IMG/VR virus record: IMGVR_UViG_2663763232_000005
Length of the DNA: 23,373 nt
DNA from: a virus
Taxonomy: Duplodnaviria > Heunggongvirae > Uroviricota > Caudoviricetes
Direction: 5' to 3' (one strand)
Part shown: positions 5,386 to 23,373 of the stretch, in pieces
Layout: every line of letters starts with the position of its first letter
How positions within the stretch are numbered: position 1 is the first letter of the stretch
Made by a program: the position numbers and the translations under genes
The notes under the pieces: generated by a model
Databases searched by the model: none
Seen by the model: the letters and a program-made list of their open reading frames with translations, nothing else
Told to the model about the DNA's origin: nothing

Positions 5386-5419
5386 CCGAAAATAAAAAAG
5401 CCACCTATTAGAAGGTGGC
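5386..5419 (-). terminator. Intrinsic terminator downstream of the moron ORF
   Basis: On the minus strand GCCACCT-TCTAAT-AGGTGGC (7-bp stem, 6-nt loop) is followed directly by TTTTTTATTTT. The U-tract runs into the RBS of the gp43-like gene. Confidence 0.75.
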
Positions 5420-5439
5420 CTTGTAATGAATTTTATTAA

Positions 5440-5970
5440 TTAGCGAGTCAGAAACAACGAATCTTTATACTTTTGCTGTTGTTCATTTAAATACTTAGCT
5501 GTTTCATCGCTGGCAAATGGAAATATTACCGTATTTTTAGGCATGGTAATTTCTTTTTTGTCCAGCGTCAGAGTAAACATAGGAACATACTGAGCAGAGT
5601 AACGCACCGCAGAAACGAGCTCTAGTTTAGACTCTTCAATAACACTTAAATTATCCAGGCTAACTTTCTCTTCATCTTTTTTCTTTGACGCATTTAAAGT
5701 TTTTATTACTTTATTTAATTTCTCCTGAAAATCCTCCTTAAAGTTTTCAGGATTGCCGTCGACAACAAGAATCTGTTCACCCTGATTATCTGGAAAAATA
5801 ATCTTTGCACTTATCAATTTATTTTCTTTATAAACATCACCAAGTTTTATGGCTCCTCCAGATAACTGAATAATATGTTCATCTTTAAAGGAGATGTTGC
5901 CAGAGATTATGAGAGATGAAAAAATAGCCGCTGCTCCAAGAATTACACTTGCTGTGATATAGCCTTTCAT
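5440..5970 (-). CDS. Moron-encoded secreted or membrane-anchored protein of unknown function
   Basis: 176-aa ORF, markedly AT- and Lys-rich compared with the flanking GC-rich tail genes. N-terminus MKGYITASVILGAAAIFSSLIISG looks like a signal peptide or signal anchor with no lipobox Cys. Bracketed by a promoter-like element upstream and a strong terminator downstream. Confidence 0.6.
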   Translation of the reverse strand: MKGYITASVILGAAAIFSSLIISGNISFKDEHIIQLSGGAIKLGDVYKENKLISAKIIFPDNQGEQILVVDGNPENFKEDFQEKLNKVIKTLNASKKKDEEKVSLDNLSVIEESKLELVSAVRYSAQYVPMFTLTLDKKEITMPKNTVIFPFASDETAKYLNEQQQKYKDSLFLTR

Positions 5971-6005
5971 TTTTCGCCTATTAACATTTTTCTAAATGTG
6001 CATTA

Positions 6006-19363: not shown

Positions 19364-19699
19364 TTACTCCTTCGAGCTACCAAATTTGTTACCGATTACT
19401 CGCATTGCAGCCCCACGAATAGCATCGACACCGATCAGCCCCACGCCACCACCAATGGCAACAGAAAGCGATTTAGGCCATCCGACATATTCAAGAGCGG
19501 ATGCAAAGGTCAGCGTCAGAGCGCCACATAGCAAAATCTCGAGCGTTTTTCGCTTCCAGCCACCACCACCGCCAAAATAGGCGATGCGCAAACCAGCCAT
19601 AACGATCGACATAATCACTGCACCCAGCGGTGTGTCTCCACGCCACCAGCTCTGAAACAACTCCAGCCAGTCCGGCCAGGTATTTGGGTTATGAGGCAT
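19364..19699 (-). CDS. Holin (class I-like, three predicted TM helices)
   Basis: Start proposed at ATG 19699 with GAGGTG about 15 nt upstream, rather than the track start at 19795, which would overlap the methyltransferase. About 111 aa with three hydrophobic segments, immediately upstream of the endolysin. Confidence 0.6.
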   Translation of the reverse strand: MPHNPNTWPDWLELFQSWWRGDTPLGAVIMSIVMAGLRIAYFGGGGGWKRKTLEILLCGALTLTFASALEYVGWPKSLSVAIGGGVGLIGVDAIRGAAMRVIGNKFGSSKE

Positions 19700-19742
19700 T
19701 TCGTCATCTCTCACCTCGCGATATTTGCGGGTGCTGTGTTGG

Positions 19743-19768
19743 AAATAAAAAGGCCACGCAACGTGGCC
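19743..19768 (-). terminator. Intrinsic terminator between the methyltransferase and holin genes
   Basis: On the minus strand GGCCACG-TTG-CGTGGCC (7-bp stem) is followed by TTTTTATTTCC, starting 8 nt after the methyltransferase stop. Confidence 0.6.
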
Positions 19769-19775
19769 ACCAGAA

Positions 19776-20828
19776 TTATTTCCCCACCAGTTCACTTACC
19801 TCTTTCACCGTCTGATTAAACCGCTCTGACTCAAGTTCAACACCTAACGCCCGACGCCCCAGCGCCATTGCTGCTTTTATTGTGGAACCGGATCCCATAA
19901 AGAAATCAGCAACCAGATCACCAGGTCGACTACTGGCATTGATTATTTGCCGGAGCATATCCGCCGGTTTCTCGCACGGATGTTTACCCGGGTAGAACTG
20001 AACGGGCTTATGCGTCCAGACATCGGTATAAGGCACGGAGACTGATACGGAGAAATAGCGCCGGAGAGATTTAAACTCATCCAGCAATTCAGAATATTTG
20101 CGATTCAGTGAATCATAAGATGCCACCAGCTGGTGGTGTGGTTGTTCCAGTTGTTGTTCCTGAAACTTCTCTGCCGCTATACGGGAAAACAGTGCCTGTA
20201 ACTTCCGATAGTCAGCCTCATTCGGCAACTGCCACTGACTGGCACCAAACCAGTGGGAAACCATATTTTTCTTACCTGTGGCTTCGGCAATTTGTTTTGC
20301 CGTTATACCCAGTTCGGCACGAGCATCCCTGAAATACGATATCAGCGGTGCCATTATGTGCTGTTTGAGTTCCCTTTCTTTTGCCGCATAGCCGTCACTT
20401 TTGCCGCGATATGGCCCCTGGTAATGTTCAGCAAACAGAACGCGCTCTGTAGCGGGGAAATATGCCCGCAGGCTTTCTTTATTACACCCGTTCCATCGTC
20501 CGGACGGCTTCGCCCAGATGATATGGTTAAGCACGTTGAAACGTTCACGCATCATGATCTCGATATCAGATGCGAGGCGATGTCCACAGAACAGGTAAAG
20601 GCTTCCGGCTGGTTTCAGTACCCGCCAGAACTGGGCCAGACAGTAGTCCAGCCACTTCAGGTAATCTTCGTCCCCTTTCCACTGATTGTCCCAGCCGTTG
20701 GGCTTCACTTTGAAGTACGGCGGATCGGTAACAATCAGATCAATGGAATCATCAGGCAAGGACTGAATAAAATGCAGGCAATCAGCGTTGATTAAATCAA
20801 CACTGTTTATTTTTACAGTATTTTTCAT
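19776..20828 (-). CDS. DNA methyltransferase, beta-class N6-adenine/N4-cytosine (orphan, no endonuclease partner in window)
   Basis: 350-aa ORF with motif IV DPPY near the N-terminus (IDLIVTDPPYF) and motif I FxGxG near the C-terminus (VADFFMGSGST), the order diagnostic of beta-class amino-methyltransferases. No Shine-Dalgarno is visible before the ATG. Confidence 0.85.
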   Translation of the reverse strand: MKNTVKINSVDLINADCLHFIQSLPDDSIDLIVTDPPYFKVKPNGWDNQWKGDEDYLKWLDYCLAQFWRVLKPAGSLYLFCGHRLASDIEIMMRERFNVLNHIIWAKPSGRWNGCNKESLRAYFPATERVLFAEHYQGPYRGKSDGYAAKERELKQHIMAPLISYFRDARAELGITAKQIAEATGKKNMVSHWFGASQWQLPNEADYRKLQALFSRIAAEKFQEQQLEQPHHQLVASYDSLNRKYSELLDEFKSLRRYFSVSVSVPYTDVWTHKPVQFYPGKHPCEKPADMLRQIINASSRPGDLVADFFMGSGSTIKAAMALGRRALGVELESERFNQTVKEVSELVGK

Positions 20829-20978
20829 GGATCAGTAAGCGTAACTCTGGTAGGCTCACTCTGCTTTTGCGCTAAAGCAGTGGGCCGTGGTTCGCTTGTG
20901 ACCAGTAAGCATGAGCGAATGGCTGGCAGGTGCTACCAACACCCACCAGCCGCCCATTTTCACAGCAGGAAACCGCCA

Positions 20979-21206
20979 TTACTGGCAGCGTCTGAATTTA
21001 TTCCCGTACCCGCCGTTATCCTTCGCCAGACCCGCCAGAACTAACTGAGTCAGTATTAACTGGCACCGGGCTTCGCTTACTCCGGTAGTTCTCGTCATCA
21101 TGCGTGGCGTTACCCACTTGTCAGCAGGTAAGAAATGAAGGACTGCGGCGGCGGTTTCTGTCATATCTTGCTGTTTTAGCATGTCTTTTTCCCTTCTGGT
21201 TAACAT
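20979..21206 (-). CDS. Small hypothetical protein, possibly winged-helix DNA-binding
   Basis: 75-aa ORF; an internal start at 21182 (M9) is preceded by GAAGGGA. The segment VTPRMMTRTTGVSEARCQLILTQLVLAGLA looks like a helix-turn-helix. Lies between the tR'-like terminator and the methyltransferase. Confidence 0.4.
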   Translation of the reverse strand: MLTRREKDMLKQQDMTETAAAVLHFLPADKWVTPRMMTRTTGVSEARCQLILTQLVLAGLAKDNGGYGNKFRRCQ

Positions 21207-21300
21207 GACATACCAATAACTCTTGTCTAAAAAGCCAGCAAGATAAAAAGTCAGTATTCACGACCACCAGCGTGTTTACTGTACTGCACCAGGTTTACAG

Positions 21301-21330
21301 GTACAAAAAAACCGCTCGACGGCGGGTTTA
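21301..21330 (-). terminator. Candidate late-operon terminator (tR'-like), weak
   Basis: On the minus strand a short GC stem (CCGC-CGTCGA-GCGG) is followed by seven T. The stem is only 4 bp, so strength is uncertain. Confidence 0.3.
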
Positions 21331-21482
21331 AGCTGTGTGGCGAAGTAACCACTCTTAACACAGTAAACGAGAAAATGCGGACCGCGTAAGTTTTTTTTGA
21401 TAGATTATGCATATGCAACGAACCCAGGATCATTAACAAATCACAACCCATTGATTCAAAAGGATAATAAAGGGTAATTTTA

Positions 21483-22415
21483 ATGACTACTACAGCCACT
21501 TCCGCGCCACTAACTAAACAAAAAAAAATGCGTATCGGTTTCTTCCAAAGCTCCTCAGGAACGAAGTCAACTACATCAAATGCACAACTTGCATTTGACA
21601 ACATGTATACAACCATTGTTACACCTTCGCAAAATTCTTATACCGCTGAGTTTGATAAGAAAAAATTAAAGATTGTATTCTTAGAAAAAGACGCACAGGC
21701 GGAGTTCTATTTTGGTTATCTATCATGCTCTCGTGATGGTTTCCACTTACCTTATATTGGTGATGAAAATTGGGATGAGCACAATATTCCGTTAGATGAT
21801 AAAAAATATATAGTCGAACGCACTTATTTTATTTACTACTATAAGAAAGACATTCTTGTTTTATCTCAAAATCATTTAGGACCTAAAGTTTCCGATTTAG
21901 CATTTCTTTTATTCAATTTTTCTGAAGAAAACAAACCTGTAGCGTTTGAGGCAATTTGGAAAAAAGAAAGTGTAAAAGAACTACTTGAAACAGGAAGCAC
22001 TTTACGTAGCTGTGAAATTACACTCGCCGCTCCACGTAATTTTAGCGCAACGGATTATGACCTTTCGAATTCATTTTCCAAAAGTATGATTGAAATGATG
22101 GCTGGGATGGGCGGTTCGCATTTAAAACTATCACTTAGAGGTAGAGCATCGCAACGTAAATTAATCCGTGGTTATCTCAGTGATGAAGTAAAAAGTGGAA
22201 TAAAGGAATTAATAGAAAAAGTTCCTCACTTATTACGTAAAGCTAATGTCACTGAACCTAAAAATACTCATTCAAGGAGTCTTCTCAATCAAGTTCTGAT
22301 CAGTGAAAAAAACATTAACACAAAAGATGGCTACGCAAAAGAAACAGATGTGCGTACTGCCTTGATCAGTGCTAAAATTGAACATGGTCAGTATTTAAAG
22401 CAATATGAAATCTGA
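21483..22415 (+). CDS. Hypothetical soluble protein, first gene of an AT-rich two-gene cargo cassette (candidate defence/exclusion sensor)
   Basis: 310-aa ORF on the strand opposite to all phage late genes; AT-rich and Lys/Asn/Ile-rich. AAGGG lies 8 nt before the ATG. No motif I recognise; SSSGTKST is not a canonical Walker A. Confidence 0.6.
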   Translation: MTTTATSAPLTKQKKMRIGFFQSSSGTKSTTSNAQLAFDNMYTTIVTPSQNSYTAEFDKKKLKIVFLEKDAQAEFYFGYLSCSRDGFHLPYIGDENWDEHNIPLDDKKYIVERTYFIYYYKKDILVLSQNHLGPKVSDLAFLLFNFSEENKPVAFEAIWKKESVKELLETGSTLRSCEITLAAPRNFSATDYDLSNSFSKSMIEMMAGMGGSHLKLSLRGRASQRKLIRGYLSDEVKSGIKELIEKVPHLLRKANVTEPKNTHSRSLLNQVLISEKNINTKDGYAKETDVRTALISAKIEHGQYLKQYEI

Positions 22416-22429
22416 TCTTATTTTTAAGG

Positions 22430-22882
22430 ATGATGATTATGCTTATTAAAGTTTTAATTAACATAGTTATCAGTGGGCTGTTAGCTTGGGTGCTTGGGAA
22501 ATACCTAGCGCCTATGGCTCACTCTGATATCTTAAGTACAGCCGGAGTGTTATCTACGGTGGCAGGCATTTTGTTTGGTTTTGTATTGGCCGCTATTTCC
22601 ATCTTCAGTTCTGCAAGTTCAAGTACTGATGGAATTATTTTTGCTTTAAAACAAAACAAGATTTTACCTAAAATTATTCATAACCTGTTATCTACGGGAG
22701 TTACCTTAATATTAGCATGTATTTTCCCGCTGATAGCAATGTTTATAAATGAAAAAATCACCATTACCTCTGTAAGACTTGATTTCGCCCTAACCTTATA
22801 TGGTTTCTCGACCCTGATCGTATCAATAGTTTCATTTGCAAGTACCTGGAGAAAAATAAACTGGATATTACCCCACATATAA
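22430..22882 (+). CDS. Hypothetical integral membrane protein with four predicted TM helices, second gene of the cassette (candidate effector)
   Basis: 150-aa ORF starting 14 nt after the upstream stop. AAGGA precedes the start; the ATG at 22439 has the best spacing. Four hydrophobic segments at roughly residues 5-27, 38-62, 78-106 and 118-140. Confidence 0.6.
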   Translation: MMIMLIKVLINIVISGLLAWVLGKYLAPMAHSDILSTAGVLSTVAGILFGFVLAAISIFSSASSSTDGIIFALKQNKILPKIIHNLLSTGVTLILACIFPLIAMFINEKITITSVRLDFALTLYGFSTLIVSIVSFASTWRKINWILPHI

Positions 22883-22886
22883 TATT

Positions 22887-22910
22887 AAGCAGGTGCAAGC
22901 ACACCTGCTT
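22887..22910. promoter_or_regulatory. Hairpin between the convergent Q gene and cassette ends (possible bidirectional terminator)
   Basis: AAGCAGGTG-CAAGCA-CACCTGCTT, a perfect 9-bp stem between the cassette stop (22882) and the Q stop (22926). Flanks are A/U-rich on the minus-strand side (UUAAUAUUAUAU) but there is no clean U-tract. Confidence 0.4.
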
Positions 22911-22925
22911 ATCCAAACCAAGATA

Positions 22926-23288
22926 TTAATCCATATCTAAGCTAACATTTAGAATAGCTAGACAACCTTCTATAAATCCCTCAGCCATCTGTATCTCAAT
23001 GCGTATTATTTTCTCATCCTTTTTGCGAGCTTTAGCGAGCTTTCTTTTAGAGATACCGTATAGGTAATGGGCAACAAGAAGCGAGTGTTCTTCAGGTCTT
23101 TTTTGCTTTAGACGAGCAAGACAACCTTCAATAATTAATGCATCACTATCTGAACAAGCCTGACGTGTTTTGCTTGTATAGGGAAGAAGCCCTTTAAACC
23201 CAGCAGCTATAGGCGAATAGTCTACCCCAGAACTATCACTCGCCGCCCATGCACCCCAACGATCCAGAACCATCTGAATATCACGCAT
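22926..23288 (-). CDS. Late-gene antiterminator Q (phage 82 / QuuD-like family)
   Basis: Track ORF runs to 23366, but the ATG at 23288 is preceded by GGAG 7 nt upstream and gives MRDIQMVLDRWGAWAASDSSGVDYSPIAAGFKGLLP..., which resembles the QuuD-type Q N-terminus as I recall it. Confidence 0.65.
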   Translation of the reverse strand: MRDIQMVLDRWGAWAASDSSGVDYSPIAAGFKGLLPYTSKTRQACSDSDALIIEGCLARLKQKRPEEHSLLVAHYLYGISKRKLAKARKKDEKIIRIEIQMAEGFIEGCLAILNVSLDMD

Positions 23289-23373
23289 CAACTTTCTCCA
23301 CAAAATCAGGCCAGCATGACCTGCTCCCCGTTGATTAGTACACCCCGATGTTAGTAATGTCTTCATAAGCCAC

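Follow-up and report, generated by a model that had tools for sequence, protein, structure and literature searches.

What do two AT-rich genes encode that lie, against the direction of their neighbours, between the Q antiterminator gene and the late and lysis genes of a lambdoid prophage of Escherichia coli? We addressed this question for positions 21483-22882 of a 23,373-nucleotide Caudoviricetes sequence (IMG/VR record IMGVR_UViG_2663763232_000005; this whole stretch of DNA is hereafter called the window). The cassette consists of gene A (21483-22415, plus strand), which encodes a soluble RexA-like protein of 310 aa assigned to Pfam DUF6731 and PHROG 7651, and gene B (22439-22882, plus strand), which encodes a RexB-like four-helix membrane protein of 147 aa assigned to PHROG 8552. 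A first-pass annotation of this DNA had likened the pair to RexA and RexB of phage lambda, while seeing no similarity to RexAB or to any family that could be named. A in fact belongs to DUF6731, and deep profiles of its family align with RexA. We consider it very probable that the pair is related to RexAB. By analogy with characterised pairs, it is likely that the two proteins act as a RexAB-type abortive-infection or exclusion defence, and the cassette is probably a deeply diverged RexAB-type member that sits as a moron, transcribed on its own, between Q and the late leader.

Both genes were found where they had been placed, as tightly linked plus-strand open reading frames (ORFs), with four predicted transmembrane (TM) helices in B. 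The frame of gene B opens at 22430, in agreement with the earlier size of 150 aa; however, the likely start is the ATG at 22439, giving 147 aa, because a Shine-Dalgarno sequence, AAGGA (22426-22430), lies 8 nt upstream and both the start called by the Prokaryotic Genome Annotation Pipeline (PGAP) and the N-termini of homologues agree with it. The gap between the stop codon of gene A and the start of gene B is 23 nt. The AT-rich island was also confirmed: the GC content of 21600-22800 was 0.32-0.37, versus about 0.47-0.60 in the remainder of the window. Among 5426 complete E. coli genomes, 18 contain a prophage region whose identity to the window DNA is 99.4-99.9%, and in identical E. coli DNA PGAP names A a 'DUF6731 family protein' and B a 'hypothetical protein'. 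When the cassette was compared with an 84%-identical one in a related prophage (locus L038), the proportions of nonsynonymous and synonymous differences (pN/pS) were 0.10/0.77 in gene A and 0.14/0.84 in gene B, and synonymous sites were saturated. Both genes are thus real and under strong purifying selection; a pseudogene, a transporter subunit and a structural protein were rejected as readings of the cassette. Across Enterobacterales, 64 clusters for A and 97 for B were obtained at 90% identity.

The family matches of A in the sequence libraries were limited to Pfam DUF6731 (PF20505; 44 bits against a cut-off of 27, residues 12-273 on positions 2-261 of the 295 in the model) and PHROG 7651, and a profile of its close homologues aligned with the distant DUF6731 clade at 99.9% in hhalign. 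In the predicted model of A, an N-terminal sheet with helices is followed by a central four-stranded alpha/beta unit and then by a C-terminal strand with helices. This order follows that of RexA, in which a four-stranded dimerisation domain is inserted into a split globular domain, and the model therefore has the RexA fold, at a sequence identity to RexA of about 12%. The best structural match of A in BFVD (E 4e-17) came from an uncultured virus. An exhaustive HMMER search yielded 187 representatives of the A family at E<=0.001, and a deep profile was built from 161 sequences, namely 30 close homologues, 130 representatives and the protein of phage AUS531phi. When this deep DUF6731 profile was aligned with a 24-sequence RexA profile, hhalign gave 85.6% and E 5.5e-6 over 248 columns, with A 17-305 placed on RexA 1-265; the reversed-sequence control gave E 0.21. 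Even an alignment made with a shallow A profile, itself not significant, places the HLGPKVSDLAFLL motif of A opposite VFGPTTSDLTDFL of RexA. The predicted structure argues strongly, and the sequence profiles moderately, for A as a remote homologue of RexA.

A is a basic protein (pI 9.0), which is only suggestive of DNA binding, and no recognisable enzymatic or toxin domain was found in it by Pfam, NCBIfam or scans of its homologues. A sequence search of the PDB with the A profile gave no match, and NCBIfam returned for A and B a single spurious match (Lart1, 16.6 bits against a cut-off of 500 bits). Weak Pfam matches to TubZ-like_C in five A homologues (best E 7e-4) were set aside as probably spurious. 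PADLOC v2.0.0, one of the checks that had been proposed for the locus, matched neither A nor B. The tables of DefensePredictor, however, label one Halomonas UniRef50 cluster, which matches DUF6731 at 99.8%, as 'RexAB~RexA' (PMC13092281); the link between DUF6731 and RexA is therefore already implicit in current tools. A full-text literature search for 'DUF6731' and the protein accessions found no mention of them. Tables S5/S10 of the DefensePredictor work also list E. coli WP_000654526.1 (340 aa, hypothetical) as a predicted novel defence gene; among its remote matches, the Halomonas DUF6731 cluster with the 'RexAB~RexA' label ranks first (95.8, 22% identity; PMC13092281). Judging from this match, the protein may be a further RexA-like lineage in E. 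coli.

B matched phrog_8552 at 7e-60, and four long helices together with a short helix in the central loop were predicted for it (AlphaFold2, pLDDT 82), as were four hydropathy segments; application of the positive-inside rule gave 2 vs 2 charges. As in RexAB-type systems, a four-TM protein of about 145 aa is thus encoded directly 3' of a RexA-like gene. TM2 and the central loop of B are highly conserved, and H28, G43-F48, S54, S57, L70, K71, C94 and W137 are invariant. With a shallow B profile and lambda RexB alone, hhalign found no alignment. A RexB family set was composed of lambda and five diverged rexA loci, all with the gene order cI-rexA-rexB. Against this set, a wide B profile including the Enterobacterales clade gave 33% and E 4.6e-4, and a profile of distant B-like proteins gave 66% and E 5.6e-5 over 120 colinear columns (reversed control, E 0.41). 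Features common to B and RexB are TM2, an H-x-D motif preceding it and, in the central loop, the motif (K/R)-x-x-G-(Y/H); this loop is experimentally essential in Sbash gp31. On the basis of these alignments, homology of B to RexB is likely but not established. The best BFVD structural match of B came from the same uncultured virus as that of A, and the second-best was an uncharacterised 165-aa Sbash protein (E 0.048) that is not confirmed as gp31. A match to MotA_ExbB (Pfam E 0.13, 12.5 bits, below the 22.9-bit cut-off) was not used. A holin or lysis role of B was also rejected: no holin family matched B, and its strand is opposite to that of the holin gene at 19364-19795 (minus), which matches Phage_holin_3_1. 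The resemblance that the first-pass annotation had noticed thus reflects remote homology in the case of RexA and likely also in that of RexB, and the RexAB reading is for this reason stronger than had been supposed.

Several points weigh against this reading. Shallow profiles of A gave no significant alignment with RexA (hhalign, 0.4-0.6%) and a 25-sequence profile of the distant DUF6731 clade reached only 5.8%, so that the sequence evidence for the A-RexA link depends on profile depth. The RexA models of Pfam (PF15969) and PADLOC (PDLC02339) miss A at E<=1, and RexA models miss all 30 A homologues (E<=10) and the distant A-like proteins as well; as controls, lambda RexA and RexB scored 9e-110 and 9e-61, respectively, with their models. 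The Pfam and PADLOC RexB models do not match B, lambda RexB was outside the top 50 BFVD structural matches of B, and the B-RexB alignments (33-66%) argue only moderately for a link, TM proteins being prone to compositional matches. Unlike lambda rexAB, the pair lies outside the immunity region; such a location is not universal, however, since the Sbash Rex-like pair also lies away from the repressor gene. Finally, the defence role of the cassette is assigned by analogy, and as roles outside defence are also known for RexA and RexB, function does not follow from homology.

The two genes were next to each other far beyond E. coli. Homologues of A and B were found on shared contigs throughout Enterobacterales. 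The sample was extended to 15 loci for distant A-like proteins (about 20% identity to A), taken from Halomonas and relatives, Aeromonas, Neptuniibacter, Amphritea, Parathalassolituus, Brachymonas, Acidiferrobacterales, Mariprofundaceae, Magnetococcales and a metagenome-assembled genome (MAG) of an unclassified member of Pseudomonadota, together with Vibrio and Pseudomonas phage loci. A hidden Markov model (HMM) built from Enterobacterales B proteins only matched the ORF directly 3' of the A-like gene in 11 distant loci (E 7e-30 to 8e-6; Vibrio, Pseudomonas, Aeromonas, Halomonas and relatives, Mariprofundaceae and Magnetococcales). At this position, the other distant loci showed one weak B match, two four-TM ORFs by hydropathy and one 175-aa ORF, and the last locus was a truncated contig. 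In Klebsiella pneumoniae, an intact but uncalled B-like gene (L041/L042:5961-6404; B HMM, 5e-38) lies 3' of the A homologue; this pair is placed between a primase and a tape-measure gene and adjoins an Imm_superinfect-family gene. Nearly every locus that could be read, from Enterobacterales to Zetaproteobacteria and Magnetococcales, therefore has a B-like four-TM gene behind the A-like gene, and A+B is an ancient, co-inherited two-gene module, carried on prophages and on further mobile elements.

The settings of this module were diverse. In Pseudomonas phage AUS531phi the order is cI, A-like gene, B-like gene; directly upstream of the pair, a gene with helix-turn-helix (HTH) and S24 domains (cI-like) was found in L015 and an HTH gene in L014. 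The repressor-adjacent pairs, which belong to a Pseudomonas phage, a Vreelandella locus and a MAG, have the same order as lambda, where rexAB follows cI, and all lie outside Enterobacterales. In L035, L037 and L017, a cI-like or HTH gene is nearby but not adjacent to the pair. Other pairs lie beside integrases or inside the head module of Mu-like prophages. In L021 (Neptuniibacter), L022 (Amphritea) and L024 (Parathalassolituus), the A-like gene and the ORF downstream of it are located in the head-morphogenesis module, which is an unusual position for a moron. In L021 the two genes have on one side a Mu F-like gene, which is fused to a PBECR2 nuclease domain and has a 155-aa ORF behind it, and on the other the Mu protease I gene. 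L022 and L024 share this layout by ORF order only; in both of them hydropathy shows a four-TM downstream ORF, and only L024 gave a weak match to the B HMM. Furthermore, Vibrio phage 10N.286.54.F4_PE001, a non-tailed virus (Tectiliviricetes, Vinavirales), carries A (39% identical) and B (HMM 7e-30) beside an integrase (L009:1389-2896), and the module thus moves between viral realms.

In the window, the right boundary of the slot that holds the cassette is formed by the Q antiterminator gene, which itself lies outside the cassette (22926-23291, minus strand; Pfam Phage_antitermQ, 6e-52). The program-made Q ORF reaches 23366 (146 aa), whereas PGAP gives a Q of 121 aa at 22926-23291 in identical DNA. 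Three cassette alleles were found in E. coli, which are at least 99% uniform within themselves and 47-62% identical to each other in amino acids; they are carried by 18, 72 and 25 of the 5426 complete genomes, or about 2% in total. The same slot is used by these three alleles, by phage cdtI (orf54/orf53), by the prophages of L038 and L039 and by a Pectobacterium prophage. We compared ten prophages with the same DUF968-Q backbone at this junction and found the cassette, other cargo or an empty slot. Cargo on the strand opposite to Q directly followed Q in eight of them, and the slot was empty or degraded in two. Three of the eight cargoes are the three Rex-like alleles. A defence candidate that matches PADLOC TIR-TM (1.7e-57) occupies L034:2642-3457, an SDH-type Clp-fold serine protease L032:2276-3271, a 339-aa protein of unassigned function L043:1719-2738 and a lipocalin L047:1790-2314, all opposite to Q. 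A three-gene cargo on the plus strand of L046:1082-2544 (E. coli 2003-3014) encodes proteins of 141 aa and 111 aa and a multi-TM protein of 182 aa. With the DUF6731 profile, the 141-aa and 111-aa proteins scored weakly, at 11.5 and 7 bits respectively, and the 141-aa protein starts with MKVRSIGF, which resembles the RIGFF motif of A; this set may be a split or degenerate Rex-like variant, but the scores are too weak to claim it. The slot after Q is a moron hotspot with some recognisable defence content, and is not exclusively devoted to defence. The cargo position suggested by the first-pass annotation was therefore borne out, both by the identification of Q and by the variable content of the slot.

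These settings bear on the idea that the cassette mainly serves the life cycle of its own prophage by tuning induction, late-gene timing or lysogen physiology. A has RexA homology, and the cassette adjoins the control point of Q and the late genes. The RexA literature describes a RexB-independent modulation of the switch, in which lambda RexA biases CI/Cro towards lytic growth. Lambda RexB is reported to protect lambda O and antitoxins from ClpXP degradation. However, the elements and positions in which the pair is found differ greatly: it occurs within a Mu-like head module, close to integrases, in a Vibrio virus without a tail and adjoining the primase gene of a Klebsiella phage. Prophages that share the backbone hold unrelated cargo or nothing in the slot, and the strict co-inheritance of A and B fits a two-component effector system. 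The varied settings and the swapped cargo point to a portable accessory function rather than one wired into the regulation of a single phage, and a mainly life-cycle role, proposed by analogy with lambda, appears unlikely.

On the left, the slot is bounded by a conserved block of some 95 bp (21306-21395, minus strand) that contains back-to-back terminator-like hairpins. A terminator scan found a minus-strand hairpin with a U-run at 21323-21311 and a plus-strand terminator-like hairpin at 21375-21387. The block is near-identical in the window, phage cdtI and two prophages of the P0030 clade despite their differing cargo and downstream genes; it was aligned in L003, L004 and L008 and is kept both where a methyltransferase comes next and where a holin does. 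Matches to the left flank (21200-21407) were found in about 3000 E. coli genomes. Rfam gave no match on 20800-23373, and the fold of the conserved block was not unusually stable (z -1.2). The block probably serves the late transcript as leader and terminator. Neither pR' nor the Q-binding site was located; pR' probably lies on the far side of the cassette, because the gap of 43 bp after Q leaves no room for it.

Upstream of gene A, an AT-rich region (21396-21482, plus strand) contains a sigma-70-like match, ATCACA-17-GATAAT (21440-21468), and a purine-rich stretch as a ribosome-binding site. This region is a putative promoter of the cassette by a weak consensus match; promoter-like sites in it numbered 9 against 6.9 expected from shuffling, which is no excess, and the region lacks conservation across the cassette clades. 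The 43 bp that separate the convergent stops of B and Q hold a hairpin with an 11-bp stem (22886-22911); it has no clear minus-strand U-tract and is likely a terminator or an insulator that sets the cassette apart from the early operon.

By analogy with lambda RexAB, Sbash gp30/31, RexABpp and Sucellos, a RexAB-type cassette would act as follows. In the lysogen, A and B would be made at a low level from the cassette's own promoter. Upon infection by another phage, a dimeric, DNA-binding A would sense a phage product or an intermediate of replication or recombination, and the activated A would switch on B. B would then oligomerise into a channel or pore through which membrane potential and ATP collapse, and the infected cell would arrest or die, so that the incoming phage is not propagated. 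The three E. coli alleles probably differ in the phages that they sense.

The roles of the two proteins may also be the reverse of these, A being a toxic antiviral effector that B sequesters until infection. Such an arrangement has a precedent in mycobacteriophage Butters (PMC12894663), and the computation made here cannot tell which partner is the effector. On the other hand, the membrane protein is used or proposed as the effector in four of five Rex-like systems (PMC12894663) and in Sucellos, A is without a recognisable enzymatic or toxin domain, and the conservation of TM2 and the central loop of B is as expected for a channel-forming effector. We regard reversed roles as very unlikely. 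A further explanation is that the cassette serves superinfection exclusion or another membrane function, such as a block of DNA entry or lysogenic conversion, in which the cell is spared and the likeness of A to RexA reflects a shared RdgC-like DNA-binding fold. B is indeed a small inner-membrane protein in a moron slot, the Klebsiella pair adjoins an Imm_superinfect-family gene, and RdgC-like proteins have the same fold. RdgC itself, a recombination-associated DNA-binding protein, matched A much more weakly than RexA did and has no membrane partner, and A gave no match to the Pfam RdgC model. This explanation seems highly improbable to us.

The arrangement of the RexAB-type cassette relative to Q leads to one additional, doubtful proposal, that the cassette switches itself off upon induction of its own prophage. 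Since the cassette is convergent with Q and separated from it only by the hairpin without a U-tract, antiterminated early transcription past Q could, speculatively, cause antisense read-through of B and then A during induction, which would silence a module otherwise able to abort the prophage's own lytic cycle. The convergent geometry of Q and the cassette is kept in the three E. coli clades and in the L038/L039 and Pectobacterium prophages. If the proposal is true, the opposite-strand slot next to Q would be a general self-insulating docking site for toxic defence cargo.

To the left of the cassette, the minus strand carries a 75-aa ORF, an N6/N4 DNA methyltransferase and the lambda-type holin, and the rest of the window forms a late operon, in which terminase, portal, tail tube and tape-measure genes are found together with related ones. 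The first-pass annotation had placed every backbone gene on the minus strand, and this was confirmed for the flanks, namely Q, the 75-aa ORF, the methyltransferase and the holin. The 75-aa ORF (20979-21206, minus strand; phrog_331) is winged-helix-like, with faint MarR/TrmB and Ren-like matches, and the methyltransferase gene is located at 19776-20828 (minus strand). Both sit between the late leader block and the holin gene and are absent from some sister prophages; they are therefore another optional module. At the other end, the last 57 bases of the window (23317-23373) no longer match the prophage backbone, which has a DUF968 gene upstream of Q, and instead match a multi-copy sequence that is carried by about 2600 plasmids and also occurs at many sites in chromosomes. 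This segment looks like the end of an insertion sequence, and the prophage of the window may be disrupted just upstream of Q. A second AT-rich island (5401-6000, GC 0.34) contains an ORF of 176 aa (5440-5970, minus strand) with no Pfam match; it is located in the tail module between the tape-measure and DNA-circularisation (Mu gp43-like) genes and may be a second moron.

About 70 years after Benzer's work on rII, the trigger of RexA and the opening of RexB are still unsolved. To our knowledge, lambda is still the only Rex example in E. coli. The cassette and its two sister alleles would provide a second, tractable lineage native to E. coli with natural allelic variation, which would serve comparative work on triggers and on A-B coupling. 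The analysis ties DUF6731 and its unnamed four-TM partner (PHROG 8552) to RexAB across Proteobacteria, with carriers including Mu-like prophages and a non-tailed Vibrio virus, and this whole group is missed by the Pfam and PADLOC v2.0.0 models. The slot after Q, with its variable cargo in these prophages, merits being mined systematically. If the cassette were found to have no anti-phage activity, this would limit the transfer of function from similarity to the RexA fold.

Compared with known systems, the cassette differs from lambda RexA/RexB (RexA, PDB 8TWQ) also in its position and presumably in its expression. The lambda genes belong to the immunity operon under pRM and are co-transcribed with cI, whereas the window pair is placed on the opposite strand between Q and the late leader and presumably has a promoter to itself; the cassette is not known to exclude T4 rII or any other phage. 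Sbash gp30/gp31, CarolAnn gp44/gp43 and Butters gp30/gp31 likewise combine a cytoplasmic RexA-like DNA-binding dimer with a four-TM protein, the effector and sequestering roles being reversed in Butters. The RexA-like partners of these actinobacteriophages are larger (337-372 aa, versus 310 aa for A) and come from another phylum. Five Rex-like systems have been counted, including RexABpp of Pseudomonas putida (Sci Rep 2026, PMC12894663); Sucellos would add one more. RexABpp (PP_5643/PP_5644, prophage P1) was found through a similarly remote similarity to RexA (PMC12894663); compared by description only, it differs from the cassette in lying downstream of a CI-like repressor and in belonging to another host genus. 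Sucellos (SclA/SclB), from the chromosomal integron of Vibrio cholerae, is RexAB-like in predicted structure with no Pfam RexA match; it needs both of its genes, acts by abortive lysis and is equipped with a promoter of its own, and outside integrons it is reported mainly from prophages, often of Salmonella (bioRxiv 10.1101/2024.07.02.601686). Like Sucellos, the A/B family has two genes and includes Vibrio and Salmonella members, although no V. cholerae member turned up in cluster look-ups; by description only, Sucellos may be the same family as the cassette or a parallel lineage. Pairs of a remote RexA-like protein and a four-TM protein have thus been validated as anti-phage systems in which both genes are needed (RexABpp, PMC12894663; Sucellos, bioRxiv 10.1101/2024.07.02.601686). 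The earlier suggestion that the system may be undescribed accordingly stands for the lineage and not for the kind of system: the cassette is an uncharacterised, deep sister lineage of a kind already known from RexABpp and Sucellos, rather than a new kind.

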